Of a stretch of 64,000 bases of DNA, positions 7,602 to 30,086 are shown piece by piece. Within the stretch, counting starts at the first letter, position 1. Each line of letters begins with the position of its first letter. A program made the translations under genes and the position numbers. Source of the DNA: Terriglobia bacterium (GTDB lineage: Bacteria; Acidobacteriota; Terriglobia; 2-12-FULL-54-10); the NCBI GenBank assembly GCA_963666975.2, contig CAXVYR010000003.1:576001-640000 (forward strand), written 5' to 3'. The notes below the pieces were generated by a model. The model was not told the DNA's origin and made no database searches. It was given only the letters and a program-made list of their open reading frames with translations.

Positions 7602-8930
7602 TTACCGGGAAGCCGTGGCAGGCTCCTGCTTGGATTCAAAAGGACAAGGACGTCCGGAAAGGTGCATTTCAAATTCCTCCCGGAACTTCTGCACAAAACT
7701 GATCATGGGCATGGCGGCGGCGTCGCCCAGCGGGCAGAAGGTTCGCCCAAGCATATTTTTGGCCAGATGCTCTACCAAGCCGATATCCTCGTCCCGCCCT
7801 CCGCCGGAATGGAAACGGTGGAGTGTTTTACTCAGCCAGTCGGTTCCTTCCCGGCAGGGGATGCACCAGCCGCAGCTCTCGTGCGCATAGAATTGCATGA
7901 GGCGCAGGGCAACCTTCACCATGCAGGTGTCCTCGTGCATCATAATCACGGCTCCCGAACCCAGCATGGAGCCCGCTTTGGCCACCGAATCAAAATCCAT
8001 GGGGGTATCCAGCGCGTCGGCGGTCAGCACCGGCGTGGAGGAACCTCCCGGGATGACGGCTTTCACTTTCTTGCCGTCCAGAATTCCGCCTCCCACTTCC
8101 TCGATCATCTTGCGCAGCGGGAACCCCATCGGCAATTCGTAAACTCCCGGCCGGTTGACGTGTCCGGAAAGCACAAAGAGCCGTGTTCCCCCGTTGCGCG
8201 GCGTTCCCAACTGTGCATACCACTCCCCGCCGTTGCGGAGGATGGCGGGGACAGCGGAGAAAGTTTCCACATTGTTGAGGACCGTCGGACCGCCGTAGAG
8301 CCCGACCACAGCGGGAAACGGGGGGCGAATCCGCGGAATGCCGCGCTTGCCTTCGAGCGACTCCAGCAGCGCCGATTCCTCGCCGCACTCGTAGGCTCCC
8401 GCCCCGGTGTGGGTCGCCAGTTCAAAGTCAAAACCGGTCCCTAGAATGTTTTTTCCCAGGTAGCCCCGCGCGTATGCTTCCTCCAGCGCGCGGTCCAGAA
8501 TTTCCAGCAGATAGCGGTACTCCCCCCGCACGTAGATATAACCCTGGTGGGAGCCCACCACGATGCCTGCAATCAAAATCCCTTCGATCAACTGATGGGG
8601 GTCTTTCTCCATCAGCAGGCGGTCCTTGCAGGTTCCCGGCTCGCTCTCGTCGGCGTTGCAGACGATATATTTTGGCTTGGGAGATTCTTTAGGGACAAAA
8701 CCCCATTTCATGCCGGTCGGAAAACCCGCTCCACCCCGGCCTCGCAGATTGGACCGCTTCAACTCCTCCAAGATGGATTCCGGAGTCATCTGCTTCAGGG
8801 ATTTTTCGAGCGCCTGGTAGCCGTCGTGGCCCAGATAAGTGTCGATGGAAGCGGAATTCGGCAGGTCAAACCGTTCGGTTAAGACGAGCACCTCATGTTC
8901 GGAAACCGGCATGCCAGAGTGATCCTTCAA
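7602..8930 (-). CDS. nuoF: NADH-quinone oxidoreductase subunit F
   Basis: LRGRGGAGFPTGMKW, NADESEPGT, HESCGWCIPCREG; start is either TTG 8930 or ATG 8912. Confidence 0.97.
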   Translation of the reverse strand: MKDHSGMPVSEHEVLVLTERFDLPNSASIDTYLGHDGYQALEKSLKQMTPESILEELKRSNLRGRGGAGFPTGMKWGFVPKESPKPKYIVCNADESEPGTCKDRLLMEKDPHQLIEGILIAGIVVGSHQGYIYVRGEYRYLLEILDRALEEAYARGYLGKNILGTGFDFELATHTGAGAYECGEESALLESLEGKRGIPRIRPPFPAVVGLYGGPTVLNNVETFSAVPAILRNGGEWYAQLGTPRNGGTRLFVLSGHVNRPGVYELPMGFPLRKMIEEVGGGILDGKKVKAVIPGGSSTPVLTADALDTPMDFDSVAKAGSMLGSGAVIMMHEDTCMVKVALRLMQFYAHESCGWCIPCREGTDWLSKTLHRFHSGGGRDEDIGLVEHLAKNMLGRTFCPLGDAAAMPMISFVQKFREEFEMHLSGRPCPFESKQEPATASR

Positions 8931-9406
8931 GCGCGTGAGCGTTGGAGCTCCCCAATCAATTGGTCGAAACGTTCCGGAGTCAGTTCATGATGAAACTGAT
9001 AATTCACCTGTATGGCCGGGGCCCAAGCACAGGCCCCTATGCACTCCACCTCCTCCAAGGAAAACAGCTTGTCAGGAGTTGTTTCGCCGGGAGCAAGGCT
9101 CAGCTTTTTCCGGGCGTGCTCGAACAGTTCCTCGCCGCCCCGCAGAAGACAGGAGATGTTGGTGCATACCTGCAGGTGGTATTTGCCCGCGGGCTTTTTG
9201 CGCAACATGGAATAATACGAGATGGTTTCTTCCACTTGCGGGATCGTCAACTCCAGCCGTCCGGCGATTTCAGCGATTGTTTCCTTGCGCAGGAAGCCTT
9301 GTTCGTCCTGGACAAACAGCAGCATGGGAATCAGCGATGAGCGCTTGATGGGATAGTTCCGCATCAGCTTTTTTAATTTATCTTCGAGTTGTGCGCTGAA
9401 TTGCAT
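8927..9406 (-). CDS. nuoE: NADH-quinone oxidoreductase subunit E
   Basis: VCTNISCLLRG and VECIGACAWAP 2Fe-2S motifs. Confidence 0.95.
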   Translation of the reverse strand: MQFSAQLEDKLKKLMRNYPIKRSSLIPMLLFVQDEQGFLRKETIAEIAGRLELTIPQVEETISYYSMLRKKPAGKYHLQVCTNISCLLRGGEELFEHARKKLSLAPGETTPDKLFSLEEVECIGACAWAPAIQVNYQFHHELTPERFDQLIGELQRSRA

Positions 9407-9475
9407 GTGCAACTTCTTGTGAGCGGAATTATCCTTAAGAAATCTATTCTATTGAGAACCTGACTTTAGGGCAAG

Positions 9476-9541
9476 GTCAGGGCACGGTTTCAACCGTGCC
9501 AAAAGATGCGCGCTGTCGCAGGGGTTTTAACCCCTGAGGTA
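9476..9541. repeat. REP-like double-hairpin element (family A) between nuoD and nuoE
   Basis: GGCACGGTTTCAACCGTGCC and CAGGGGTTTTAACCCCTG palindromes; its reverse complement matches the element at 18643-18709. Confidence 0.8.
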
Positions 9542-9631
9542 ATTCGTCCATAGCAAAGCGCCCCGACGCCGAGGACCACGGGTACTCATTAGCTGCCAAT
9601 ACCAGGCCTTGCTTGACGGAATTCTCTTCAA

Positions 9632-14880: not shown

Positions 14881-16210
14881 CATTGCTGTCCGGTTAAAAC
14901 TCGAACAGAATCAACTGGTTGGGATTTCTGACTAAATCGTCTTGGGAGCCCGATGCTTCCAGGGCCTGTAAAATGGGCACTTTCTCGAAAAGAGTAACAC
15001 TGAGAATCTGTAAAATTTGGTAAAGGCTGGCTTCCAAAGCGAGACGCTTCCGGACAATGGCCACGAGTACATAGATCGAAACGGCGATCCAGATTTGAGT
15101 CTTCACTGCGTTTTGGCTGGTGCCATAGAATGCCTTGATTCGCAGGTGCTGCTTGATCCATTTGAAGAACAGTTCCACCTGCCAGCGGCACTTGTAGATT
15201 TGAGCGATAGTGAGTGCGGGTAGCACGAAATTGTTGGTAAGAAACTTCAGGCGCTTGTTTGTTTCTGCATCGAAGTACGTAACGCGCCGTAGCGGATCGG
15301 GGTATGCCCTGGCCGAGGCGTTCCCGGTCAGGATCACGGTATGATCGGATCGCAAGCCGCTGGTTCTGTCTGCTGGATGAGAATAGCGGCGTTGGAGCAA
15401 GACGTTCTCTTTCGTCCGCACGACGAAAAATGCGGAGCAGAGTGTGAAGACAAAGAGTCGCTCGAAGTCGATGTAGCCGCGATCCATCACGTAGAACGCG
15501 CCCGCTTCCGGAACGATCTCGTCGAGGATGTTGACATCGTGCACGGCACCGGCCGTGACGCGGAGAAACGTGGGGATGTTGCCCTGCAGGTCCAGCAGCG
15601 TATGCAGTTTGACGGCAGCCTTGTGTTGGCGGAATCGTGCCCACGGAAACAGCGAGAGGCAGAGGTCGATGGTGGTGGAGTCCAGCGCGTACAGGCTCTG
15701 ATCCAGATCGACGCCGATCGGATCGCGCGCATACAAAGGCCGTGCGATGCCGATCAACACCTGGGCGAAGTCCGCGTAGATGCGCCAGTCGTGCGACTCG
15801 TTGGCATCGGCCAGTGTCGAGCGCGCCACGTTGCCGCGCAATCCGATGTGGTAGAGTTTGCTGGTCATGGAACGCAGACACGCCTCGATGTCGCGGAGAC
15901 TCTCGCGGTAAGTCAACTGAGCGAACGCCATCGCCAGAAACTGGTCCCAGCAAGAAAAGCTTCGCAGGTGATCGTCGCCACGGTAGCGCGTGACGCATTT
16001 GTGAAACTCGTACGAGGGCACGTGATCCATAAGCTGAGCGAAAACGGTGCGACCGATGTTCATGCACTATTCTGTCGCCTACCCCAGTCTTTACGTTCAA
16101 AGCCATTTTTCGCCCTCGCGGATTTCAAATCGAAAAATGCTCCAATGCCCGTAACCTTTTGCTCTCATGAGACTTGTTGGCTGTTCTGAAATTTTAGCCG
16201 GACAGCAGTG
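14881..16210 (-). mobile_element. IS4-family insertion sequence, complete
   Basis: Terminal IRs CATTGCTGTCCGGTTAAAA / CACTGCTGTCCGGCTAAAA; 9-bp target duplication ATGCACTTT at 14872-14880 and 16211-16219. Confidence 0.93.
14894..16063 (-). CDS. IS4-family DDE transposase
   Basis: LDSTTIDL, MDRGY, YKCRWQVELFFKWIKQ (YREK motif). Confidence 0.95.
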   Translation of the reverse strand: MNIGRTVFAQLMDHVPSYEFHKCVTRYRGDDHLRSFSCWDQFLAMAFAQLTYRESLRDIEACLRSMTSKLYHIGLRGNVARSTLADANESHDWRIYADFAQVLIGIARPLYARDPIGVDLDQSLYALDSTTIDLCLSLFPWARFRQHKAAVKLHTLLDLQGNIPTFLRVTAGAVHDVNILDEIVPEAGAFYVMDRGYIDFERLFVFTLCSAFFVVRTKENVLLQRRYSHPADRTSGLRSDHTVILTGNASARAYPDPLRRVTYFDAETNKRLKFLTNNFVLPALTIAQIYKCRWQVELFFKWIKQHLRIKAFYGTSQNAVKTQIWIAVSIYVLVAIVRKRLALEASLYQILQILSVTLFEKVPILQALEASGSQDDLVRNPNQLILFEF

Positions 16211-16429
16211 ATGCACTTTTATTGCATGTTCTTCGAACAAAGATTTGTCATTTCAGAATATATCCGGCCGTAGTATAAGGGGCCACATGACGGTCCACAT
16301 CTCCGGGACAGAATCCGGCTGGCATATGATTTTGTGCAAAGGTAAAGCGGAAATCCGAAATTCCGGTGAAGGAGACGGCTTGGTTGGGAAGCGTATGTCA
16401 TCAAGAATCGTCGCCGAACACATTGCCCC

Positions 16430-17599
16430 GTGGAGTTTGATGAAACAATTTCATTGGAGTATTTTGCAGGACGCTTGAAGACAATCGTGCACGGAAAGGA
16501 GGCCATCGTTTCTACAACAGGATTTACTGACAACCCGATTGTTCGATTGATTTTCCTGTTGGCTTTGCTGTACACATTTTTTGTAAGCATTGCATTAATG
16601 GGCGCTTCCTTTAAGTTTTTTGGGGCAGGTTTTGCCGAGCAATTGCTGAGTTCCACTGCCAATCCATTTGTAGGATTATTTATTGGTGTGCTCGCCACAA
16701 GTCTGGTGCAGAGTTCCTCAACGACCACGTCTATGACTGTGGCACTTGTAGCCGGAGGCGCTCTGAATATCGCCACTGCAATACCGATCGTGATCGGTTC
16801 AAACATCGGCACATCTGTGACGAATACCCTGGTATCGGTTGGCCATATATCCAGACCGGCAGAGTTTAAAAGAGCGTTCGCCGCAGCAACGGTACATGAT
16901 TTATTTAACCTGCTTTCTGTTCTGATTTTATTTTCGTTACAGTTGACCACTAATCTCTTGGGAACATCCGCCACTTTTCTGGCAGAACAGTTCAAAGAAT
17001 CGGGCGGACTGGAACTTGTCAATCCCCTGAAAGTAATTGTAACGCCAGCCGTAATCCTGATTACCAAGCTCACGGCAGAGTCCGGCACTGTAATGTTAAT
17101 CGTCGCCGGCACCCTTCTTTTTTTGGCCCTGCGTTACATCGTTCTCAACTTGCGAGTGCTAATGCTGGGAAGGATCGAAAGATTTTTTGATACAATTTTG
17201 TTTAAGAATGTGTTCACGGCGATGCTTTTGGGGCTTATCTTGACCGTTTTGGTTCAGAGCAGTTCGATAACAACTTCTTTGGTTGTTCCGCTGGCAGGCG
17301 CAGGTATTCTAACCCTTCGGCAAATCTTCCCTTTTACGCTGGGGGCAAATGTAGGAACAACCCTTACAGCGATGTTGGCTGCTCTGGTTACAAGTAGTGA
17401 AGCTGCGATAACAGTCGCTTTTGTGCATTTACTCTTTAATGTTTTCGGCATAATTCTAATCTGGCCCATCCGAAGCATTCCCATCTACCTTGCGGAAGCT
17501 TTGGCGGATTGGTCGGTGAAGTCGAAGTTGATTCCAGCTGCTTATGTCGGGATTGTATTTTTCTTGATACCCCTCGCCATAATCTATTTTGTGAGGTGA
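16430..17599 (+). CDS. Na+/phosphate symporter (NptA/NaPi-II type); true start probably near 16490-16510
   Basis: Two QSSS repeats (LVQSSSTTTS, LVQSSSITTS) with GSNIGTS / GANVGTT. Confidence 0.9.
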   Translation: MEFDETISLEYFAGRLKTIVHGKEAIVSTTGFTDNPIVRLIFLLALLYTFFVSIALMGASFKFFGAGFAEQLLSSTANPFVGLFIGVLATSLVQSSSTTTSMTVALVAGGALNIATAIPIVIGSNIGTSVTNTLVSVGHISRPAEFKRAFAAATVHDLFNLLSVLILFSLQLTTNLLGTSATFLAEQFKESGGLELVNPLKVIVTPAVILITKLTAESGTVMLIVAGTLLFLALRYIVLNLRVLMLGRIERFFDTILFKNVFTAMLLGLILTVLVQSSSITTSLVVPLAGAGILTLRQIFPFTLGANVGTTLTAMLAALVTSSEAAITVAFVHLLFNVFGIILIWPIRSIPIYLAEALADWSVKSKLIPAAYVGIVFFLIPLAIIYFVR

Positions 17600-17603
17600 C
17601 AGC

Positions 17604-18284
17604 ATGTTTAGGTTTAAAGAGCTGATTGAACTGTGGAGATCGGATAACTTACTTACACAAGCCCTGAACGATTCCCGGAAAATGTTGAACAGCACGTACC
17701 AAATGTTCGGTGAATCCGTAAAATCCTTGCGGAGAAGTGACAGCGGCAAGATGGGTATGGATATCTATGCGAAAGATCGAATGGTGAACAAGTATCAGCG
17801 TGAGGTGCGCAGAAAAGTTCTGAAACATCTTGCGATTACCGGAGGCGCCAACCTGATACCTGGCTTGATCTTGACCAACATTGTAATTGATATCGAGCGC
17901 ATTGGGGACTATACGAAAAATATTATGGATTTGGCTGTCGCACATCCGAAAAAGTTAAGATGCGGAATCTATGAGGATGACATAAAGAAGATTGAGCAAG
18001 GAGTGACCCGTATGTTTGAGCAGATTGTTCCGGCTCTGGAGGCCTCTGATAAGAAAGCGGCACGGCAATTGATTGAAAGCGACTGGTGGATGATAAAACG
18101 CTGTGATGAGGTAGCTACTGGCTTGATTAAATCGGAAGATCAGACGCTTAGTCCCGCGGATGCTGTGTCGACCGCACTGTATGCCAGGTATTTAAAGAGA
18201 ATAGCAGCGCATCTTATGAACGTCACTTCGAGTGTTGTGAATCCTTTTGACAGGATTGGCTTCCGGGAGAAAAAGGATGAATAG
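17604..18284 (+). CDS. PhoU-domain protein
   Basis: DIERIGDYTKNI and RYLKRIAAH PhoU repeats; 4 bp after the Na/Pi symporter stop. Confidence 0.85.
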   Translation: MFRFKELIELWRSDNLLTQALNDSRKMLNSTYQMFGESVKSLRRSDSGKMGMDIYAKDRMVNKYQREVRRKVLKHLAITGGANLIPGLILTNIVIDIERIGDYTKNIMDLAVAHPKKLRCGIYEDDIKKIEQGVTRMFEQIVPALEASDKKAARQLIESDWWMIKRCDEVATGLIKSEDQTLSPADAVSTALYARYLKRIAAHLMNVTSSVVNPFDRIGFREKKDE

Positions 18285-18745: not shown

Positions 18746-18841
18746 GTGATAATTATACGTATTTACAGAATTGTATGCGTCCCCCTAAGCTGACCAATGA
18801 GCCTGCTCGGAAGGCCAGAAAAAAAAGAAGGGATTTTAAGA

Positions 18842-19987
18842 ATGAAATTTGCGAGTGCAGTTGCGGCGATCCTGTTTTGGTCGAGCGTTTGTTGGGGGCA
18901 ATCCGGAGCACAGGCTCCGGCCAGCGAGAAGCAGCAATCCACCTACCGGAAGATCTGGAAGTTCGCCGAGTGGTACAACAACGAGTACAACAACGAGCAA
19001 AATCCCGTGCTCCAGAGCGTGCTCTTCAGCGGGCGGTTCCAGTACGACTACGCAGCGCTCGATGCCGACCAGGGCTCGCACTACGAGCGGAACGTCCGCC
19101 GTCTGCGGCTGGGGGCGAGAGTGAAACTGTTCGGTTCGCTCACGCTGCACAGCGAGGCGGATCTCAACCCGCAGGAAGCGGAGCCGTTTTTCCTGCGCCT
19201 CACGGACACCTACTTGCAGTGGAGCCGCAGCCGTCGATTCGCGCTGACGTTTGGCAAGCACGGCGTGCCGTTCACGATGGACGGCGCCACCTCCTCCAAA
19301 GAAATCCTCACCCTCGACCGCAACAACCTCAGCAACAACATCTGGTTCCCGCAGGAGTACATGCCCGGCGGCAGCATTTCCGGCAAGCTCTCCAACTGGG
19401 TCTATCGCGCGGGCGTGTACTCGGCCGGCGAAGCGAATCGAGAGTTCGGCGAGTTCAACGGAAGCGTCTTCACCCTCGCCGTCGTCGGCTATGATTTTGC
19501 GAAATCCCTCGGAGTGAAGGAAGCGCTGCTGGCCGGCAACTACGTGTATCAGAACCCGGACCCACGAAACACCTTCACGCGGCAGCTTCAGCACATGGTC
19601 TCGGCCAATTTCAAGTACGATGCGGGTCAGTGGGGCGTGCGAGCGGATGTTTCGGCGGCGTCGGGCTATCTGGGTCAGAGCGATCTGTGGGGCGTGATGG
19701 CCATGCCGTTCGTCAACGTCACCGACAAGCTCCAGTTCGTAGGCCGCTACACCTTTATTACGAGTGATGATCCGAATGGAGTCCGGCTCGCAAAGTACGA
19801 AAACCGCCTGGTCCCGGGCCGGGGCGACCGGTACAACGAGCTGTATCTCGGAGCCAACTACTTCTTCTATGGCCATAAGCTCAAGTTGCAGAGCGGCGTG
19901 CAGTTTGCGGACATGAACGATAGCGCCGACGACAGCGGGGCCTACTCGGGAGTCTCGTGGACCACGGGCCTTCGCGTAAGTTGGTGA
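18842..19987 (+). CDS. OprO/OprP-like phosphate-selective porin
   Basis: Signal peptide, GRFQYD...RRLRLG motif, beta-strand pattern, terminal aromatic W; next to phosphate genes. Confidence 0.8.
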   Translation: MKFASAVAAILFWSSVCWGQSGAQAPASEKQQSTYRKIWKFAEWYNNEYNNEQNPVLQSVLFSGRFQYDYAALDADQGSHYERNVRRLRLGARVKLFGSLTLHSEADLNPQEAEPFFLRLTDTYLQWSRSRRFALTFGKHGVPFTMDGATSSKEILTLDRNNLSNNIWFPQEYMPGGSISGKLSNWVYRAGVYSAGEANREFGEFNGSVFTLAVVGYDFAKSLGVKEALLAGNYVYQNPDPRNTFTRQLQHMVSANFKYDAGQWGVRADVSAASGYLGQSDLWGVMAMPFVNVTDKLQFVGRYTFITSDDPNGVRLAKYENRLVPGRGDRYNELYLGANYFFYGHKLKLQSGVQFADMNDSADDSGAYSGVSWTTGLRVSW

Positions 19988-20323
19988 GGCTGTCGCCACT
20001 CAGCCACATGGCAACTTTCCGGCTCGGATGTAAGCCAAGACACTGAAATGGTTTTTTGCTGAGGACTGTATTCTCAATAAAAGATTGAGGTTCCAGGGAA
20101 GTGTCTGACGCAGAAGCAGAAACCGACTGCATTGAGGCAAAGCGGGGAATTGAGGCGTGTGGAATTCTGTTGACTTTCAGGATGAGAGGTTGTTAACGTT
20201 TGGGCTTTGTTAAGGTATGATGTTAAACCAAAGCAGAGCCCCGCGATTGCATTCGGCAATCGAGGCAGTTAAAATTTCCCTTTAAATCTATAGCCTGAGA
20301 ATCGGCAGGAGGATTGCGAGTTT

Positions 20324-21880
20324 ATGGCCACCGCAAAAGTTGCAACCCCAAGTAAGCTAGATATTAGCAGTCTCCGGAGCACGCTGGAATCGCTGCGAGG
20401 CACAGATGACCTGCTGGTTTCCGATAAGGAAATCAATCCAGCTCTGGAGCTGGCGGGTCTTGCCAAGCAGTTCGACGGCGGATCGGCGATGCTCTTTGAG
20501 CGTGTCAAAGGCTATCCCAACGGCCGTTTGCTGACCAATCTTTTTGCCACCGAACAGCGCGTCACTCGCCTGTTTGGCGTGGAGGACCCCAAAAAATTCA
20601 AGTTCAAATGCGTGGAAGCCATCCATAACCCGATCCTGCCCAAAGTGGTCCAGGACGCGCCCTGCCAGGAAGTCGTCATCGATAAGAACATCAACGTCTG
20701 GGATATTGTCCCTATGATTCAGCACACCGAGAAGGACCCCGGACGCACCCTGGGAGGCGGCAACACCCTGGTTACGGGCAAGTACTTCTGGGGCGGGGAC
20801 CACATCAGCTATAACCGCATGAATTTCCGTGGTCCGGACTACTCCAGTTTTCAGATTTCTCCCGGTTCTCACACCGACATGATCGCCACCGAGTGGTACA
20901 GAAAAGAGCATATTCCCATGACCATCAACATGGGGGTTCCGCCGGCTTGCACGCTGATGGCCGGCGGCGGTTTCTGCTACATGGTTCTGCACAAGGGTTG
21001 CAGCGAGCTGGGCGTGGCCGGAGCCGTACAAGGCTACCCGGTGGATCTGGTCCAGGCGAAAACCGTGGACGCCAAAAGCATCGCCCAGGCGGAGTACGTG
21101 ATCGAGGGTTATCTGGACACCACGCAGAAGGTCTGGGAGAGCGAGGAGTCGGAGAAGACTCAACAGCAAGGTGTCTATCCCTTCCATCCCGAGTGGGCCG
21201 GCTACATGGGCAAGGCTTATCGCACTTACAAATTCCAGGTTACTGCCGTCACGCACCGGAAAGACAAGCCCATTTACTACCCCTCGATCGTGCACAGCTA
21301 CGACGACAAGCACATCGACACCATGATGCGCGAAGCGATGTTCTATGAAATCGCCGACCGTATTTGCCCCGGACTTTGCATTGACACCCACATCGCCATG
21401 CCGCTCACCGACTGGGGCGGGGTGATCTTCCAGATCAAGAAGCGCCGCGCGCGCGATGAGGGCTTCCAGAAGAATATCCTGGCGGCTGCTCTTTCCACCT
21501 CCATGGGCCTGCGCATGGCCATTGCCGTCGACGAGGACATTAACATTTACTCCATGGACGACATGATGTGGGCCCTCACCACTCGCATCGAGCCCGTCAA
21601 CGGAATCCAGATTGTCGCCCGCGGCGGAGCCGGCCAGACCTTCCAGCCCGCGGACCGCAGCTCGGCGGGTGACCGGGATTGGACGCAGACCAATATCCGG
21701 TTCGGCGGCGGAATGGGCTTCGATGCCACCATGCCGTTCAAATTTAAGGATGCCTTCGAGCGGCCGCCCTATCCGATTAACCTGGTTGACGCCTCGAAGT
21801 GGTTTAGCAAGGAAGATATTGCACACTCCCAGGCGAAGATGACCGAGTACGGGAAGTACATGGCGCGCACGGGCTTTTAG
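20324..21880 (+). CDS. UbiD-family prFMN-dependent decarboxylase, phthaloyl-CoA decarboxylase-like
   Basis: YNRMNFR..FQISPGSH, FHPEWAGYMGKAY, TDWGG, DIYSMDD.MW.LTTR, C-terminal ARTG; these match my recollection of the PhtDa/Pcd clade. Confidence 0.85.
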   Translation: MATAKVATPSKLDISSLRSTLESLRGTDDLLVSDKEINPALELAGLAKQFDGGSAMLFERVKGYPNGRLLTNLFATEQRVTRLFGVEDPKKFKFKCVEAIHNPILPKVVQDAPCQEVVIDKNINVWDIVPMIQHTEKDPGRTLGGGNTLVTGKYFWGGDHISYNRMNFRGPDYSSFQISPGSHTDMIATEWYRKEHIPMTINMGVPPACTLMAGGGFCYMVLHKGCSELGVAGAVQGYPVDLVQAKTVDAKSIAQAEYVIEGYLDTTQKVWESEESEKTQQQGVYPFHPEWAGYMGKAYRTYKFQVTAVTHRKDKPIYYPSIVHSYDDKHIDTMMREAMFYEIADRICPGLCIDTHIAMPLTDWGGVIFQIKKRRARDEGFQKNILAAALSTSMGLRMAIAVDEDINIYSMDDMMWALTTRIEPVNGIQIVARGGAGQTFQPADRSSAGDRDWTQTNIRFGGGMGFDATMPFKFKDAFERPPYPINLVDASKWFSKEDIAHSQAKMTEYGKYMARTGF

Positions 21881-21997
21881 CAGCGCCCGCGCAATGAAGC
21901 TGTATTGGAAGCCAGGCCATCCCCGCTGGGGAGGGTTCTGGCTTCTGCTATTCTGGCCCGCCGCAGCTCTGGGCCGGGCGGATAGAGATGAAACCCG

Positions 21998-23284
21998 ATG
22001 GGAAAGCTTCCCAAAACAAATCCTGCTGAGAGCACATCTGCCCTGGATGGCTATCGCGTCCTGGATTTGACCACTCCTCTGGGGCATCCTTGCGGAAAAA
22101 TCCTGGGCGAGATGGGCGCGGACGTAATCAAGATCGAGCCGCCGTCAGGGGACGCCGGGAGGTCGCGAAGCCCGTTCTACAAGGACCCCTCCGGTAATGA
22201 TCACAGCCTCTTTTGGATCTCCTACAACACCAACAAACGCGGCGTCACGCTCAACCTGGAATCCGCCGAGGGGCGCGCCATCCTGACCAGGATGGCGAAG
22301 GAAGCGGACTTCCTTCTGGAATCCTATCCTCCTGGCTATATGGATTCTTTAGGATTGGGATTCAATCAGTTATCCGCCCAGAACCCTAAGCTGATCTACA
22401 CGGCGATCACGCCGTTTGGCCAGTCCGGACCGTACCGGGATTTCCGGGGCGGGGACCTGGAGATTATGGCGCTTTCCGGGCTCATGTCGCTCACCGGCTA
22501 CCCAGGAAAGGAGCCGTTGCGAATATCCCTATCCCAGTCCGAGGCATGGACCTCGCTCTATGCAACCATGGGAGCCCTTACGGCGCTCTCTCACCGGCAG
22601 GCGAATGGCGGGAGCGGCCAGTTTGTGGATGTCTCGGCACAGGCGGTCTGCGTTATCCTGTGCGCCCACGCTCCCTGGTTCTGGGACTACAACCGGGACA
22701 CTCCCAGCCGGGAGGGCGAGTTCATGACGGGGCGCACCATTACCGGCGCCAAGTTCCGCACGATCTGGCCCTGCAAGGATGGTTACCTGACCTTCATCAT
22801 CTACGGCGGCCCCGCCGGACAGAAGACCAACTACGAACTGACGAAATGGATGGAGAGCTTGGGCATGGCCCCCGATTGCATGAAGCAAAAAGGGGACTGG
22901 TCACAATTCGAAGTCGCCACCATCACCCAGCCGGAAGTGGACGAGATGGAAGAAGCGATCAGCAAGTTCTTTGTCAACATAACAAAAGCGGAATATTTGA
23001 AAGGAGTGGCTGAACGTGGCATGCTGGGCTACCCGGTCGCTTCCGCCGATGATATCTTGGCCGACGACCAACTCCAGGACCGGAACTTCTGGCAGCCGCT
23101 GGAGCAGCCGGGCCGCGACCAACCCTTAAAATTTCCTGGTGCTTTCGCAAAATTTTCCGGCATGGAATGCGGAACCCGCTTCCGTGCTCCTCTGCTTGGC
23201 GAGCACAACCAAGCCGTCTACGGGGATGAGATGGGGTTTTCTTCCCAGGAAATTTCTCGATTGCGTGAGGCAGGGGTTGTCTAA
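21998..23284 (+). CDS. family III (CaiB/BaiF) CoA-transferase, subunit 1
   Basis: LDGYRVLDL, GADVIKIEPP.GD, NTNKRGVTLNL, APLLGEHN; Glu (QSEAW) where the catalytic Asp is expected. Confidence 0.92.
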   Translation: MGKLPKTNPAESTSALDGYRVLDLTTPLGHPCGKILGEMGADVIKIEPPSGDAGRSRSPFYKDPSGNDHSLFWISYNTNKRGVTLNLESAEGRAILTRMAKEADFLLESYPPGYMDSLGLGFNQLSAQNPKLIYTAITPFGQSGPYRDFRGGDLEIMALSGLMSLTGYPGKEPLRISLSQSEAWTSLYATMGALTALSHRQANGGSGQFVDVSAQAVCVILCAHAPWFWDYNRDTPSREGEFMTGRTITGAKFRTIWPCKDGYLTFIIYGGPAGQKTNYELTKWMESLGMAPDCMKQKGDWSQFEVATITQPEVDEMEEAISKFFVNITKAEYLKGVAERGMLGYPVASADDILADDQLQDRNFWQPLEQPGRDQPLKFPGAFAKFSGMECGTRFRAPLLGEHNQAVYGDEMGFSSQEISRLREAGVV

Positions 23285-23331
23285 GCAATAGGCTTGTATA
23301 AGTAATACGCTCTTATACGGAATCAGAAGCG

Positions 23332-24585
23332 ATGAGCCAACAGGCACTAGAAGGCATTACCGTAGTGGAGTTCACCGCATTTGCGGCGGGGCCGTGTATT
23401 GGGAAATACATGGCCAACCACGGCGCGTTTGTCGTCAAGGTGGAATCCGCCAGTCGTCTGGATGGCTTCCGGACCCACTATCCTCCCTTTAAGGACAACA
23501 TCAAGGGCTGGAACCGGTCCGGCACGTTTGCCATGAACAACGACTGCGTCCACAGCATCGGGCTGAACCTGAAGGTGCCTGCGGGGGTGGAGACGGCAAA
23601 AAAGTTGGTCGCCAAGGCCGACGTCGTCGTGGAAAACTTTACGCCCGGAACGATGAGCAAGCTCGGGTTGAGCTACGATGTGCTGGAACCCATCAATCCG
23701 CGGCTCGTCATGCTGAGCACATGCAACCTGGGGCAGACAGGACCCCGCGCGGAGCATCCCGGTTTTGGCTCGCAGCTTACCTCCCTCAGCGGATTCACGC
23801 ACCTGGCTGGAGAGGCTGGCGGGCCGCCGATGCTTATTTACGGCCCATACATCGACTACATCGCCGTCGGCTACGGTTATATCGCCGTCCTGGCTGCGCT
23901 CGAACACCGCCGCAAGACAGGCAAGGGCCAGTATATCGACCTTGCCCAGTACGAAGGAGGAGCGCATTTTCTGGCCCCCGCGCTGCTGGAGTACCAACTG
24001 CTCGGGACAGCTCCTGAACGGCAGGGAAACCATCACCTGGAGGCGGCGCCGCACGCGGCTTATCGCTGCGCGGGCGAGGGTAACTGGTGCGTCATCAGCG
24101 CCATGGACGACGCCGAATGGAAGCGTCTGGTCGAAGCCATAGGCAGCCCGGCTTGGGCCACAAGCCTCCGCTTTGCCACTCAGCTTGCGCGCAAGGAGAA
24201 TGAGGCGGAACTGGACAAGCACATCGCGGAGTGGACAAGCACTCGCGATGCTCAGGAAGTGATGGAAACCCTGCAAAAAGCAGGCGTCCACGCGGGGAAG
24301 GTGAACACCGTCCCGGAACTGTTTACCGACCCGCAACTGGCTCATCGCCGCTACTGGCGGCCTGTCGAGCACAAGGAGGTCGGCAAGCACCACGCCATGC
24401 TGCCTGCCTTCAATCTCTCCGCCACGCCTTGCGCAGACCCTCGCCCGGAGCCTTGCCTCTGCGAACACACCGAGATGGTTCTCGAAAAACTCCTCGGGCT
24501 ATCCAAAGCTGAGATCGACAATCTGGCCAGCCAGGGCGCAGTGGAACTGGAAAAGTCTCTCACACCCGCCACAAGCAAATCGTAG
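23332..24585 (+). CDS. family III (CaiB/BaiF) CoA-transferase, subunit 2
   Basis: LEGITVVEF, ADVVVENFTPG, PYIDY (catalytic Asp), GKGQYIDLAQYE. Confidence 0.92.
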   Translation: MSQQALEGITVVEFTAFAAGPCIGKYMANHGAFVVKVESASRLDGFRTHYPPFKDNIKGWNRSGTFAMNNDCVHSIGLNLKVPAGVETAKKLVAKADVVVENFTPGTMSKLGLSYDVLEPINPRLVMLSTCNLGQTGPRAEHPGFGSQLTSLSGFTHLAGEAGGPPMLIYGPYIDYIAVGYGYIAVLAALEHRRKTGKGQYIDLAQYEGGAHFLAPALLEYQLLGTAPERQGNHHLEAAPHAAYRCAGEGNWCVISAMDDAEWKRLVEAIGSPAWATSLRFATQLARKENEAELDKHIAEWTSTRDAQEVMETLQKAGVHAGKVNTVPELFTDPQLAHRRYWRPVEHKEVGKHHAMLPAFNLSATPCADPRPEPCLCEHTEMVLEKLLGLSKAEIDNLASQGAVELEKSLTPATSKS

Positions 24586-25080: not shown

Positions 25081-25794
25081 ATGGGTGCGATGCGAATGGA
25101 TCAAACACAACTTCTGGTTGAGGTCGAAGATCTGATTAGAACAAGGCCTACGACTGCATTCGTGGCAAATACTGACGTGGAGCTAGCTTGGTTAGGGCGG
25201 TTGACGGCGGTGATTGAAAATTGGAACTCAACCATTCATTTCTCTCTCAATAATAGCATAGATCGATTAGACGGAACAGCGTCATCTAATCGCAGGGGCC
25301 TTCGTGAAATTATGCTTTTACTGCATCATGCGCGGCATGATCTCCGAATGAAGACGATTGGCCCTGCCAATCTAGCGGTTCCACAGGGAGAAGTCTTTCA
25401 ATATTTCGATGAAATTCGCAAAATCATCGAACTCGCACGACAAGACGTTCTTTTTGTTGATCCGTATCTTGATGCGGAGTTTGTCTCTCGCTATTTGCCC
25501 CACATCGCAGATGGTGTCACCGTTCGCTTACTTGCAAGGGAAAGAGTCGCAACACTGATCCCTGCAGTGGAGGTCTTTGCCAAACAAAATAAAAAGAGAA
25601 TAGAAGTTCGATCAACTCCGAATTTCCACGATCGTTACGTCTTCGTCGACAAAACTTCCTGCTATCAGTCCGGAGCTTCTTTCAAGGACGGCGCGAAATC
25701 GGCGCCGACGACACTTACACAGATCACGGATGCCTTTGACGCAGTTTTGAAAACTTATGAGGATATCTGGAGCGGGGCGAAAGTCGAACGCTGA
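25081..25794 (+). CDS. hypothetical protein with C-terminal PLD-like nuclease-fold domain
   Basis: VLFVDPYLD...HDRYVFVD...YQSGASFKD resembles the HDR(F/Y)xxxD variant of the HKD motif; AT-richer than its flanks. Confidence 0.7.
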   Translation: MGAMRMDQTQLLVEVEDLIRTRPTTAFVANTDVELAWLGRLTAVIENWNSTIHFSLNNSIDRLDGTASSNRRGLREIMLLLHHARHDLRMKTIGPANLAVPQGEVFQYFDEIRKIIELARQDVLFVDPYLDAEFVSRYLPHIADGVTVRLLARERVATLIPAVEVFAKQNKKRIEVRSTPNFHDRYVFVDKTSCYQSGASFKDGAKSAPTTLTQITDAFDAVLKTYEDIWSGAKVER

Positions 25795-25938
25795 GCATCA
25801 TTCTTATCGGCGAGTTAGGCTGTGATCAGGTGTAATTTAACACCGGATTTCCGATATAAACTTTCAGCGGCAAACTTATAGTGACCTCCGAAGTCAATAA
25901 GGATAATCTGGTTCGAGAAAACAGAAAGAGGGACCCAG

Positions 25939-27099
25939 ATGCAAAAGGCTGAGTTCGAGGAAATTGCCCATTGCGGTGGCCAAGTGATCTTCAGCGTGAA
26001 GACGAATCAGAAGGGCCAGCGCGGTTACCAGATTACCTGGCAACATAGTCGGCCCGTTGCATGTGGAATCTTTGCCGTATACGCGATTCCCCAAGGAGTT
26101 CCAGTTGACACGATCCAACTTGGCGGGATCGGCCAGCCTTGGAACTCTCCTCCAATTCCCAACTGCATTTCAGTGTTCATCGCGTCTGACAGCGAGGGCA
26201 GGTATGGACATCAATGCCCAGCGTGTCAGGGTTATTGGCGGTCCAACGGTCTGCCTTCTACCTGCCCGTATTGCGGACTGCCTGGACATGCGCACGAGTT
26301 CCTAACAGCGGCCCAGAGGCGCTACGTCAAGCAATACTGTGACCGTCTTGTTGAGGCGATGAACGCCAAAGAAGACGGCGATCATGTGATCGACATGGAC
26401 GCTGTGGCTGACGCCGCCGGAAAGGTGGGCGACAAGCCGCCGTTTTATTACACAGAAGAGAGCCAGCAGAACAATTTTACTTGCAATGCTTGCGGTGAAT
26501 TCAACGACATCCTCGGGACTTATGGATATTGCTCTTTCTGCGGGACCCGGAATGATTTTCAAGAGATGGATGCCAATACGATCCCAGGAATCCGTAAGAG
26601 AATCAATGCTGGCGGTTCTTATGAGGATTGCGTCAGGGACGCAGTCGCTGCCTTCGATTCATTTGTCGGCCGCTATGTCGAGCAACTCGGCCGGATTCCC
26701 ATGACTCCACGCCGCAAGGCGCGGTTCAAGAAGATGAGTTTTCACAATCTGAAGGCGGTCGCAGAAGAACTGAGAACGGTGTTCGACATCGATGTCCTCG
26801 ATAACATGAAGTCCGAGGACATCGAGTTTGCTGCGCTGATGTTTCATCGGCGGCATGTCTACGAGCACAAGGGCGGTGAAGCCGATCAAAAATACATTTA
26901 TGACAGCGGTGATACGTCAGTCAAGCCGAAACAGGCACTTCACGAGACTCAGGAATCGGCACATAAGCTTGCCAGTCTCGTCGTGAAGATGGCTCGTAAT
27001 CTGCATCGTGGATTTAACGACATCTTTCCGCCCGACGAGGCACCAACTCAGAGACACGAGCGTAGCGTCCAGCGTTTGGCAGAGCTTCAGTCTCCCTAG
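25939..27099 (+). CDS. Zn-ribbon + HEPN-like protein
   Basis: Four CxxC pairs (CPAC, CPYC, CNAC, CSFC) and an RRHVYEH (RxxxxH) motif in a helical C-terminal domain. Confidence 0.7.
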   Translation: MQKAEFEEIAHCGGQVIFSVKTNQKGQRGYQITWQHSRPVACGIFAVYAIPQGVPVDTIQLGGIGQPWNSPPIPNCISVFIASDSEGRYGHQCPACQGYWRSNGLPSTCPYCGLPGHAHEFLTAAQRRYVKQYCDRLVEAMNAKEDGDHVIDMDAVADAAGKVGDKPPFYYTEESQQNNFTCNACGEFNDILGTYGYCSFCGTRNDFQEMDANTIPGIRKRINAGGSYEDCVRDAVAAFDSFVGRYVEQLGRIPMTPRRKARFKKMSFHNLKAVAEELRTVFDIDVLDNMKSEDIEFAALMFHRRHVYEHKGGEADQKYIYDSGDTSVKPKQALHETQESAHKLASLVVKMARNLHRGFNDIFPPDEAPTQRHERSVQRLAELQSP

Positions 27100-27166
27100 C
27101 TCGTTTTATGCTCTTCTCGCTGAATATTCCTCTCGTAGGAAGAGAACCGGAGGCCTCCGACCGGAT

Positions 27167-27257
27167 AATCCGAGCCGCGACCGTGAGGGAGCGGTTCAAA
27201 AAATGACTTAATCGACCAGCGTTTGGTGTCCGCTTGCTTACGCGCGCGGCTCGGATT
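27167..27257. repeat. REP-like inverted repeat (family C)
   Basis: AATCCGAGCCGCG ... CGCGGCTCGGATT 13-bp perfect IR with inner GAGCGG/CCGCTT arms. Confidence 0.7.
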
Positions 27258-27373
27258 GGCTGGGAAGCTGACCGGCAAATGCCGCCATCCTACAAAGCCA
27301 TTTTCTTAACTTTACATAATATATATTATCAGACGTTGTGATTCTGGCAATTGCCACCCAGCCCGGTCGGTTG

Positions 27374-28918
27374 CTAAGGAGAGGCGATTCGGAGGGTTGT
27401 CAGGAACTGGTAATTCCCTGTCGGAAACAGCTCCAGATTGCTGAGCCGCCGGTTATACAAGCTGACGTTGTCCATATACCACAGATGAATATAAGGCAGA
27501 TCGTGGTTGAGAACTTTCTGCAGCTCGGAGTAGTGCTGGCGGCGTTCTTCCAGGCTAGACCCGGCGCGGCCTTGCTCAATGAGCCGGTCGGCCTCCGGGT
27601 TCGAGTAGCGGCCACGGTTGGCTCCTGCGGGCGGCTGCTTGGCGGAGTGAAAGCAGTACTCGAAGATATCCGGGTCGTTGTTGGCTCCGGTCCATCGGAG
27701 CGAGTAGAAATCAAAGCGGCCTTGTGTGACGTCACCATAGAAGGTGGCCCACTCGAAGGAGCGGATTTCCAGAGCAATCCCGATCTGCCGCAACTGCTCT
27801 TGAAAGACGGCGGCCAGCTCGCGGGTGGTCTGGTCGGTGGAGGTTTTCATTTGCAATCGGAGTCGAACGCCGTCCGGACCGGGCACCAAGCCCGCTGCGT
27901 CCAGCAACTCTCTGGCTCTGGCGGGATCGTGAGCGTAGGCTGGCGCGTCCTTTTCATAGGCCCAATGTTGCGGCGGCAGGATGCTGTTGGCGGGACGGAC
28001 CATATCCCTCCACAGATAGGTGATCAGCGCCTGCCGGTCAATTCCGTAGGCAATGGCCTGGCGGACCGGGAGCGTCAGGTCTTTGTTTTCCATATTAAAG
28101 GCCAGGTACTGGTAGTTGGTACCGGGTTCCTGCGCAACCTCCAGGCTTTCTTCCTGGCGCAAGACCTCCACCATATCGGCGCTCAAAGAATTCAGCAGCA
28201 GGTCGGCGCTTCCCTTCCGCATTTCCAGCGCGCGCACGGTGGCGTCGGGAACGACCTTGAAGCGCACGCGCGCGATCCGCGGCGGCGTGGCCCAGTAGTC
28301 CGGGTTGCGCTCCAGGAGCACATCTTCATCCTGCGCCGCGCTCACGAAGCGGAACGGCCCGGAGCCGACGGGATCGAGCGCCACTTCTTGTGCGGACCCG
28401 TCCGGGACGATGCCGATGGCTCCCTGCGTCAGGTTCCACAGAAAAGAGGCGTAGGGCTCTTTCAGGCGGATGACGACGGTCGCATCATCGGGCGTCTCTA
28501 CGGAATCGACCTGCGCGAAGCTGGCGGCCTTGACGCTGGGAAGCTCGCCGGAAAGGAGGCTCGTAAAAGTGTAGCGGACGTCGCTCGCCGTCAAGGGTCT
28601 GCCGTCGTGGAAGCGGACATCTTTACGCAGGTGGAACACATAGGTCAGCGGGTCGGGCGACTCCCAGCTTTCGGCCAGCCAGGGTTGCAAACGGAAGTTG
28701 CGGTCGCTGCGCAGGAGGCTGTCAAAGATCAGCGCCCCAATCCGCTGCGATTGAGCGTCGGTGCCGATGCGCGGGTCCAGGTTCAGCGGAGAGGATTCGA
28801 TCAGCATCACGACGGTTTGCATGTCCCGTTGCGGAGCGCAACCGAACCCGGCCATGCCGAGCAGCCCGATTACTATACCAAGCAACAGGTGTGCAATGCC
28901 TCTGCCCTTATTTCGCAT
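27374..28918 (-). CDS. ABC peptide-binding lipoprotein (family 5, OppA/DppA-like)
   Basis: Lipobox-like AGFGC, LAESWE..DPLTYVFHLRKDVRFHDG, VGSGPFRF; ATG at 28918 overlaps the anmK end. Confidence 0.9.
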   Translation of the reverse strand: MRNKGRGIAHLLLGIVIGLLGMAGFGCAPQRDMQTVVMLIESSPLNLDPRIGTDAQSQRIGALIFDSLLRSDRNFRLQPWLAESWESPDPLTYVFHLRKDVRFHDGRPLTASDVRYTFTSLLSGELPSVKAASFAQVDSVETPDDATVVIRLKEPYASFLWNLTQGAIGIVPDGSAQEVALDPVGSGPFRFVSAAQDEDVLLERNPDYWATPPRIARVRFKVVPDATVRALEMRKGSADLLLNSLSADMVEVLRQEESLEVAQEPGTNYQYLAFNMENKDLTLPVRQAIAYGIDRQALITYLWRDMVRPANSILPPQHWAYEKDAPAYAHDPARARELLDAAGLVPGPDGVRLRLQMKTSTDQTTRELAAVFQEQLRQIGIALEIRSFEWATFYGDVTQGRFDFYSLRWTGANNDPDIFEYCFHSAKQPPAGANRGRYSNPEADRLIEQGRAGSSLEERRQHYSELQKVLNHDLPYIHLWYMDNVSLYNRRLSNLELFPTGNYQFLTTLRIASP

Positions 28919-30086
28919 AGACCACCTTTCCCAGAATTGCCGGATGGCGCGCGCCTGTTGCCGACCTGAGGTTGGAAGCACGCCGGTGAAGCGTGTGGTA
29001 GGCCAGCACCGCAAAGGCTATCGCTTCCTTGCCGTCGGCGGGGATACCGGTGGCGTCCGAGGTGAGAATCCGCAATTTGCCGCTTCCCTTTTCCTGGCCC
29101 TCGCCCAACCGCCGTCGAAGCTCTTTCATCAGGAAAAGATTCTTCACTCCCCCGCCGGACAGAATGCAATCGGCGACGGAAAACTTCGGCAGGACAAATT
29201 TTTTAACGCCGTATGCGATTGATTCCGCCGTCAACGCCGTGGCCGTCGCCAGTGCGTCCCTAGAAGAATGAAATCTGCCCAATGCAAGGAACCGCTTCAA
29301 GTAGTCCCGTCCGAATTGTTCCCGCCCGGTGGTCTTCGGCGGCGGCAGACGGAAATAGGCATGCCGCAGCAGGCGGCGCACCAAGGTCTCGGAGATTTTC
29401 CCCTGCGCTGCCATCTTTCCAGCCGGATCATATCGCTGCTTCCCTTTCGTGGCGCGCTCGGCAAGAGCGTCCAATAACATATTACCGGGGCCGGTATCGA
29501 AGGCAATCACTTCTTCTGGCGTTCCACCCGCAGGAATTGCCGTGAGGTTGGCGATGCCGCCGAGGTTCACCGCTACCCTGCCCCGCCGTGGATGCCGGTA
29601 GAGCAGATAGTCGAGATAGGGAACCAGCGGCGCGCCTCGCCCTCCGGCGGCCACGTCCGCCGTGCGGAAGTCGCCGATGGTGGTGACGCCGGTGCGCTCT
29701 GCGATGACGGCAGGCTCGCCGATTTGCAGAGTGGATTGAACCGGAAGCCCGCAGAAACGGGATGCCTTGTTCTGATGGTGCACAGTCTGTCCGTGGGAGC
29801 CGATCAGACGAAGACTATCTTTCGGGATGCCGGACCGGCGGCACACGTGCAAGCAGGCGCGCGCAAAAAGTTCTCCCAGCAGAAAGTTCATCTGCGAGAG
29901 CTCCGACGCCAGCACGGGAGCACCGCTGGAAATTTCCAGGATTCGGCGGCGGACATCAGGCGGATAGGGCACGAAGCGGGAGGCGCGGAGACGAATGCGC
30001 GTCTTCCACTCGCGTCCTGTAATCTCCGCCAGCGCCACGTCGATGCCGTCGGCTGAGGTCCCGCTCATCATTCCCGCTACAAACAT
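28908..30086 (-). CDS. anmK: anhydro-N-acetylmuramic acid kinase
   Basis: GMMSGTSADGID, GSHGQT, DFRTADVAAGGRGAPLVP, FDTGPGN, KEAIAFA. Confidence 0.95.
   Translation of the reverse strand: MFVAGMMSGTSADGIDVALAEITGREWKTRIRLRASRFVPYPPDVRRRILEISSGAPVLASELSQMNFLLGELFARACLHVCRRSGIPKDSLRLIGSHGQTVHHQNKASRFCGLPVQSTLQIGEPAVIAERTGVTTIGDFRTADVAAGGRGAPLVPYLDYLLYRHPRRGRVAVNLGGIANLTAIPAGGTPEEVIAFDTGPGNMLLDALAERATKGKQRYDPAGKMAAQGKISETLVRRLLRHAYFRLPPPKTTGREQFGRDYLKRFLALGRFHSSRDALATATALTAESIAYGVKKFVLPKFSVADCILSGGGVKNLFLMKELRRRLGEGQEKGSGKLRILTSDATGIPADGKEAIAFAVLAYHTLHRRASNLRSATGARHPAILGKVVYAK

Follow-up and report, generated by a model that had tools for sequence, protein, structure and literature searches.

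A UbiD and paired CoA-transferase cluster resembling the anaerobic phthalate activation and decarboxylation module in a Terriglobia bacterium

Phthalates are mass-produced pollutants, and phthalate itself is a breakdown product of plasticisers. Studies of their anaerobic degradation by way of phthaloyl-CoA are, to our knowledge, limited to a small number of denitrifiers and a single sulfate reducer. Here we analyse a 64,000-nucleotide stretch from a Terriglobia bacterium (assembly GCA_963666975.2, contig CAXVYR010000003.1, positions 576,001 to 640,000; the window), in which a gene for a UbiD-family decarboxylase is followed by two genes for family-III CoA-transferases. The closest described system is that of denitrifying Rhodocyclales, with a phthaloyl-CoA decarboxylase (PCD, or PhtDa) and a two-subunit CoA-transferase, SPT (PhtSa/PhtSb). 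Passages of PMC13040137 and PMC9516798 describe activation of o-phthalate by a succinyl-CoA-dependent transferase in denitrifiers, by an ATP-dependent ligase in Desulfosarcina cetonica, and an isophthalate:CoA ligase in Syntrophorhabdus aromaticivorans. A preliminary description of this DNA had credited sulfate reducers and syntrophs with the two-subunit succinyl-CoA transferase as well, which does not agree with those passages, where only denitrifiers use it. In a section of PMC8269228, separate beta-, gamma-, and deltaproteobacterial PCD clades are distinguished, and the isophthaloyl-CoA decarboxylase is grouped with sequences annotated as phenolic acid decarboxylase subunit C, apart from PCD. 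The pht cluster of Aromatoleum aromaticum EbN1 has the order ubiX, PCD (UbiD), two CoA-transferases, and TRAP transporter. Our literature search found no paper linking Acidobacteria with phthaloyl-CoA.

Judged by its sequence, the window cluster is a genuine, intact member of the PCD plus SPT type of module. Three co-oriented plus-strand open reading frames (ORFs) span positions 20324-24585, exactly where the preliminary description had placed a 518-residue UbiD protein and two family-III CoA-transferases, and the Pfam assignments agree:

20324..21880, plus strand: P0001, PCD-like UbiD-family acyl-CoA decarboxylase dependent on prenylated FMN (prFMN), 518 aa, assigned from Pfam, the match to the solved structure 8pmk, and the trees

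21998..23284, plus strand: P0002, family-III CoA-transferase subunit with Glu at the Asp column, presumed non-catalytic partner, 428 aa, assigned from CoA_transf_3 and its EbN1 counterpart

23332..24585, plus strand: P0003, family-III CoA-transferase catalytic subunit with Asp in PYIDY, 417 aa, assigned from CoA_transf_3 and its EbN1 counterpart

The genes are separated by 117 bp (P0001 to P0002) and 47 bp (P0002 to P0003), and the UbiD gene lies at C3:596324-597877 in genome coordinates. P0001 contains UbiD_N, UbiD, and UbiD_C (PF20695, PF01977, and PF20696), all above their cut-offs, while CoA_transf_3 covers the full length of P0002 (263 bits) and P0003 (348 bits), so that all three genes are full length against their profiles. 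P0001, P0002, and P0003 all stay below the cut-offs of the NCBIfam models, and automatic annotation would therefore assign only generic family names to the triad. Long ORFs on the opposite strand, e.g., 20357-22087 on the minus strand, are read as by-products of the 56-58% G+C content. No RNA data set was listed as containing the 4262-bp stretch of the triad.

Among solved structures, P0001 is most similar to PCD (8pmk and 8oz5; 518 bits, E 2e-154), and the next family, protocatechuate decarboxylase, scores 162 bits, a threefold gap. The solved PCD is essentially the protein encoded on EbN1 plasmid 2 (1175 bits across 527/527 residues), with which P0001 exhibits 47% identity. Like the PCD/PhtDa proteins of denitrifying Rhodocyclales (EbN1; 8pmk, 8oz5, and 8p02), P0001 belongs to the UbiD fold family, aligns over the full length, and is encoded directly upstream of two CoA-transferase genes. 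The motifs YNRMNFR, FQISPGSH, FHPEWAGYMGKAY, and TDWGG, which had been named as typical of the PCD clade, are all present in the translation of P0001 and are each identical in the aligned 8pmk, and AEYV(I/L)EGY is also common to both proteins. The UbiD superfamily has a conserved ionic network, R-Xn-E-X4-(E/D), according to a passage of PMC5818171. R165, E257, and E261, candidate residues of this network, are invariant in 15 PCD-like sequences and identical in 8pmk; the two glutamates are spaced E-X3-E in both P0001 and 8pmk. The nearest relatives of P0001 are proteins from metagenome-assembled genomes (MAGs) of Acidobacteria or Terriglobia, with 74-82% identity, which agrees with the origin that had been guessed from the letters alone, a probable acidobacterium. 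The UbiD protein of the isophthalate degrader Pelotomaculum isophthalicicum JI is 67% identical.

The two transferases are paralogous and resemble SPT in homology, subunit correspondence, gene order, and aspartate pattern. Identity to the first and second EbN1 pht transferases is 43% and only 25% for P0002, and only 26% and 50% for P0003. These one-sided best matches indicate that P0002 and P0003 correspond one to one with the EbN1 subunits, in the same order and beside the decarboxylase gene, and, together with PCD as the closest solved protein, they support the proposed likeness to the PhtDa and PhtSa/PhtSb module. In an alignment with Frc and YfdE of Escherichia coli, the column holding an aspartate that we take to be the catalytic residue of family-III CoA-transferases is Asp in P0003 (PYIDY) and in its EbN1 partner, Glu in P0002 (SQSEAW), and Tyr in the EbN1 partner of P0002; the earlier observation that only the second transferase carries the aspartate is therefore correct. 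Across the loci described below, and counting high-scoring segment pairs that span the site at 38% identity or more, Asp is kept in 86/86 orthologues of P0003 and in 0/94 orthologues of P0002. Glutamate at this column of P0002-type proteins is confined to an acidobacterial subgroup, with 5/36 loci in clade A and 0/58 in clade B of the trees described below. It is found in the window and the five closest acidobacterial loci; outside the subgroup the position is occupied by Tyr, Pro, Ala, His, or other residues. The closest solved transferase is benzylsuccinate CoA-transferase (9fn0, 9fol, and 9fun), presumably the enzyme whose subunits are named BbsE and BbsF; P0002 matches 9fn0_A with 205 bits and P0003 matches 9fn0_B with 254 bits. 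The Asp column is Tyr in chain A and Asp in chain B, the same asymmetry as in the window pair, although this enzyme belongs to a different pathway, that of toluene, and has no UbiD partner.

We propose, with a probability of roughly 0.55, that the cluster is a two-step activation and decarboxylation module that would convert o-phthalate or a close analogue into benzoyl-CoA with an external CoA donor. In the first step, the heteromeric family-III CoA-transferase would shift CoA from a donor thioester to one carboxyl group of the aromatic dicarboxylate, with P0003 supplying the catalytic aspartate and P0002 acting as non-catalytic partner. The donor would most likely be succinyl-CoA, and the acceptor most likely o-phthalate or a close analogue. 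In the second step, the PCD-like UbiD would release the remaining free carboxyl group as CO2 to leave an aryl-CoA, which would be benzoyl-CoA if the substrate is phthalate. The prFMN cofactor of the UbiD would be made by the single UbiX encoded approximately 650 kb away. For the window we infer the donor, the substrate, and the direction of the reaction, in addition to the role in uptake of a porin that is described below.

A first scan, covering one genome per prokaryote species, gave 13 loci. An alignment-based scan gave 177 relatives, of which the best 80 were kept, and a scan headed by a denitrifier-type sequence gave more than 574 relatives in species genomes of many phyla, of which again the best 80 were kept. 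The module is not rare: it is of a known kind and is found in hundreds of species genomes. From 163 loci (L003-L165), 159 with an uninterrupted UbiD translation were retained, and L010, L011, L015, and L085 were dropped as split or partial. Two trees were constructed, one with FastTree from 169 rows and the other by a short IQ-TREE search (LG+G4, with SH-aLRT support only) from 56 rows picked from the 169, both rooted on representatives at 37-47% identity. The PCD-like ingroup is parted from the outgroup with support of 100 in both trees, and so is a clade B that holds all Aromatoleum proteins and 8pmk. In the FastTree phylogeny, P0001 is found in a 78-row clade A (support 91), within which it sits in a six-row Acidobacteriota subclade with support of 100. 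Group A needs two changes in the IQ-TREE run, suggesting that A may be a grade. The trees were built without two enzymes, the PCD of D. cetonica and the isophthaloyl-CoA decarboxylase of S. aromaticivorans; neither name turned up in the 80 loci kept from each alignment-based scan, nor in the top 120 proteins listed for P0001 and for L012, a ligase-type UbiD.

The ingroup comprises 161 rows, counting the window and a Pelotomaculum protein. At least one transferase gene lies within 7 kb of the UbiD gene in 95 of them, and such rows occur in both clades. In another 25 an AMP-binding ligase is encoded within 2 kb, and 40, some at contig ends, show neither type of gene. Genes resembling those of succinyl-CoA synthetase are found near clade-A UbiD genes (beta in 9 loci, alpha in 8), in no clade-B locus, and not in the window; their presence beside clade-A loci fits succinyl-CoA as donor. 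Molybdenum enzymes of the xanthine dehydrogenase type adjoin the UbiD gene in eight clade-A loci, some without transferase genes, and are also present in clade-B L160 and in L015, which was dropped from the tree. For example, in the cultured Firmicute Paradesulfitobacterium ferrireducens PLL0, succinyl-CoA-synthetase-like beta and alpha genes (L009:5892-7885) precede the triad and an 826-residue xanthine-dehydrogenase-family molybdenum enzyme follows it (L009:12440-14920); neither Oah nor BoxB was found in this genome. Some genomes hold copies from both clades. L077 and L150 share one 34-kb contig of a Deltaproteobacteria MAG, with a clade-A copy and an early-branching clade-B copy, and the pairs L079/L158 and L071/L161 likewise bring together a clade-A and an early-branching clade-B UbiD in one MAG. 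The clade-A copy has transferase genes nearby in L077 and L071, and none were found in L079. No activating enzyme was found near the clade-B copies of these pairs, and no ligase or transferase adjoins the UbiD gene in L146 or L150. Downstream of the clade-B UbiD gene in L150 come two cupin genes and a gene for an FMN-dependent dehydrogenase, and an AFOR-type gene is also near.

Within the family of the window genome, 8 of the 13 other genomes match the UbiD at E 1e-80 or below, one of them being a 47% hit and one broken by stop codons, and orthologues at 74-84% identity are intact in six. No PCD-like match was found in 27 genomes from ten other families of the same class. The synteny of the locus with a Terriglobia chromosome and its kin, taken together with the matches in the family, makes the module look like a maintained, vertically kept trait. 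The lineage had been described as one not known for this chemistry: the literature is indeed silent, but most of the family carries a match, and the module occurs in Acidobacteria MAGs from both clades. In L010, from a complete, one-contig Terriglobia relative (G003), the orthologous UbiD gene (8001-9556) is split into two matches by one TGA and one TAG, and the two transferase genes beside it still match over their length.

The window genome is 98.9% complete in four contigs. It encodes a single UbiX above the cut-off (C3:1248377-1248922; 228.6 bits, cut-off 108.9), approximately 650 kb from the UbiD gene, in accordance with the earlier remark that no ubiX is adjacent to the triad. This ubiX gene is part of a group (L182:7539-15648; C3:1247539-1255648) that comprises a GntR regulator gene, ubiX, a riboflavin-kinase-like gene, a benzoate-CoA-ligase-family gene (597 bits), and IS3/IS481-type transposase genes, and ends with a second UbiD gene on the other strand; its 522-aa product is closest to phenylphosphate carboxylase beta and VdcC models, below their cut-offs. 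Beside this group (L182:1848-6165), genes for a CzcB-type adaptor (184+234 aa) and a CusA/CzcA-type RND pump (609+399 aa) are each split into two adjacent ORFs, suggesting frameshifts or pseudogenes.

Turning to downstream metabolism, we found no known benzoyl-CoA or benzoate route in this near-complete genome, and the full degradation pathway that had been suggested is not visible. What the genome does contain is a short BoxB homologue of 379 aa (L181:6959-8098, minus strand; C4:66959-68098), with 240 bits versus a cut-off of 499 and 194 bits versus the solved BoxB 3per, which by eye retains the EExRH-type iron motifs in the alignment to 3per. Its divergently oriented neighbour (L181:8256-9149, plus strand; C4:68256-69149) encodes a regulator with an XRE-type helix-turn-helix and a shikimate-kinase-like domain, which passes the model "anaerobic benzoate catabolism transcriptional regulator" (315 versus a cut-off of 204; BzdR/BoxR type). 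Two benzoate-CoA-ligase-family genes are above the cut-off, the second of which (C2:99867-101381) was set aside as a pathway lead, having no aromatic-pathway neighbours. Across the family of 14 genomes, Oah is above the cut-off in one, a 430-contig MAG, and AFOR_C, BcrB, and full BoxB are each above it in 0/14; the short BoxB-like gene is found in 10/14. We then picked 50 triad-bearing genomes from 94 transferase-bearing loci, taking every clade-A one (33) and 17 from clade B. Oah is above the cut-off in 19 and BoxB in 14 of these, with 29 having either and 21 neither; the genome holding L112 (G083, unpublished) is negative for Oah and positive for BoxB. Many of the 50 are MAGs for which completeness is not reported, and these absences are therefore soft.

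Several observations weigh against o-phthalate conversion to benzoyl-CoA as the function of the window cluster. P0001 is only 47% identical to the characterised PCD and, although it lies inside the PCD-like family, as the preliminary description had expected, it falls outside the fully supported clade B that contains the characterised o-phthaloyl-CoA decarboxylases; its substrate could thus be a different aryl dicarboxylate. For Azoarcus sp. PA01, part of 10.1101/2022.07.29.502009 describes a clade-B enzyme that accepts only o-phthalyl-CoA, isophthalyl-CoA and terephthalyl-CoA being inactive, and a specificity established in clade B is not transferable to clade A. Clade A also contains a ligase-adjoining subclade composed of Syntrophorhabdaceae MAG proteins and the P. 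isophthalicicum JI UbiD, so that Syntrophorhabdus MAG copies encoded beside ligases and the UbiD of an isophthalate degrader share the clade with P0001. All known o-phthalate clusters contain ubiX, according to a passage of PMC13040137, and no UbiX match lies inside the window cluster; nor is there an inner-membrane transporter gene adjacent to the triad. The window therefore differs from the EbN1 system in lacking an adjacent ubiX, a TRAP transporter, a mobile-element context, and a benzoyl-CoA pathway in the genome, and its presumed non-catalytic transferase subunit has Glu where that of EbN1 has Tyr. Of the genes that had been named for a genome check, ubiX was found, but there were 0 matches to BcrB and to AFOR_C, Oah reached at best 86 bits (cut-off 464) and BoxC 56 (cut-off 712), which leaves the short BoxB-like gene alone. 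The own-genome search also found no Ring_hydroxyl_A match and no intradiol dioxygenase (Dioxygenase_C) above the cut-off.

The same chemistry might instead act on a different aromatic or heteroaromatic dicarboxylate, such as isophthalate, terephthalate, a hydroxyphthalate, or a pyridine dicarboxylate (quinolinate), and yield another aryl-CoA, a possibility that we hold tentatively. The position of P0001 outside the clade of o-phthalate-specific enzymes is consistent with this, as is the presence in clade A of the UbiD of an isophthalate degrader. The nearest named UbiD relatives, with 67-68% identity, are those of the clade-A ligase clusters (Syntrophorhabdaceae MAG L021 and its kin, and P. 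isophthalicicum JI), where the UbiD gene is accompanied by genes for an AMP-binding CoA ligase, TAXI-TRAP transporter, UbiX, and GntR regulator in place of the two transferases, and the names of some MAGs with clade-A copies read as pointing to terephthalate-plant reactors. The occurrence of L077 and L150 on one MAG contig suggests that clades A and B are not redundant, and the molybdenum enzymes of the xanthine dehydrogenase type beside clade-A UbiD genes, in some loci without transferase genes, likewise count in favour of a different substrate. The missing benzoyl-CoA route would also matter less if the product is not benzoyl-CoA. However, all of the catalytic motifs and 47% of residues are common to P0001 and PCD, the transferase pair is orthologous to the phthalate-specific pair, and the isophthaloyl-CoA decarboxylase is placed apart from PCD in the section of PMC8269228 cited above.

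An unlikely alternative is a CoA-recycling shunt, in which the product aryl-CoA would donate its CoA to the next substrate molecule, so that the dicarboxylate would be converted in net terms to a monocarboxylate and CO2 without ring degradation, and the acid would be excreted or cross-fed. Family-III transferases act in this way in the frc-oxc system of E. coli K-12, in which a family-III CoA-transferase sharing its Asp column with P0003 is coupled to decarboxylation of a dicarboxyl-CoA. This is an analogy only: the decarboxylase of frc-oxc uses thiamine diphosphate rather than prFMN and is not a UbiD, its transferase is a homodimer, and its product CoA ester serves as donor. Across many phyla the three genes stand together as a unit of their own, the window genome and its family are without the canonical benzoyl-CoA markers (Oah in 1/14; AFOR_C, BcrB, and full BoxB in 0/14), and 21 of the 50 picked genomes have neither Oah nor BoxB above the cut-off, all of which would fit a shunt. 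On the other side, the denitrifier enzyme is described as succinyl-CoA dependent in the relevant passage of PMC13040137, succinyl-CoA is also what the SucCD-like genes near clade-A loci point to, the absences counted in the 50 genomes, many of them MAGs, are soft, and no antiporter gene is adjacent to the triad. In addition, the two benzoate-CoA-ligase-family genes and the BoxB-like gene beside a BzdR/BoxR-type regulator gene indicate that an unrecognised use of benzoyl-CoA may exist. An extended form, which we regard as similarly improbable, would have the acidobacterial module run on its own, recycling CoA while it decarboxylates a natural aryl or heteroaryl dicarboxylate that would enter through an anion porin and leave as a cross-fed mono-acid, with clade A as a distinct sister group predating man-made phthalates. 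That the module is a decaying or idle remnant, inherited and no longer used in the lineage, is very improbable: the interrupted UbiD of L010, the lack of an adjacent ubiX, and the lack of a downstream pathway would fit such decay, but none of the three window genes is truncated or interrupted, the PCD motifs are all retained along with the catalytic Asp, and six other family genomes hold intact orthologues.

This locus adds little by itself, and the same module is present in hundreds of species genomes. Clade A is a large sister group of the characterised decarboxylases in which no enzyme could be tied to an assay, and the module is retained, with no recognised means of using benzoyl-CoA, both in a near-complete genome and in most of the family to which it belongs. 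Together these points suggest that the natural substrate or role of much of the family is not yet understood.

Two further features lie upstream of the triad:

18797..19987, plus strand: OprO/P-family anion-selective porin, 396 aa, possible accessory part, assigned from Porin_O_P (67 bits)

20193..20221, plus strand: promoter-like site within the 336 bp preceding the UbiD gene, a weak candidate from a consensus scan

The Porin_O_P-family gene, which matches part of the profile only, ends 336 bp upstream of the UbiD gene and qualifies the earlier statement that no transporter is adjacent, a statement that stands for inner-membrane transporters. Of the five other loci in the acidobacterial subgroup, three (L004, 82%; L005, 79%; L010, 71%) have its counterpart in the same place, immediately before the UbiD gene; none was found in L003 or L017. 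The porin may take part in substrate uptake. It could instead belong with Na/Pi-cotransporter and PhoU genes farther upstream, although L005 and L010 have a porin gene next to the UbiD gene and neither of these two upstream genes was found there. The promoter-like site has 9/12 consensus matches, and the region contains six such sites versus 2.7 +/- 1.8 in shuffled sequences.

The flanking genes, encoding a histidine kinase, AnmK, and an ABC transporter, are syntenic with two Terriglobia loci, which favours vertical inheritance over recent transfer. Downstream of the triad (25081-28969), three plus-strand ORFs of 237, 386, and 543 aa match no Pfam family. The 237-aa ORF weakly resembles a VPA1262 N-terminal domain model (38 bits versus a cut-off of 80). 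The 237- and 386-aa ORFs were not found in the syntenic Terriglobia loci and may thus be an insertion. The G+C content of the window falls to 0.459 at 16001-18000, where the Na/Pi-cotransporter and PhoU genes lie, versus 0.55-0.62 elsewhere, and these genes are 89-94% identical in the same-genus locus L004.

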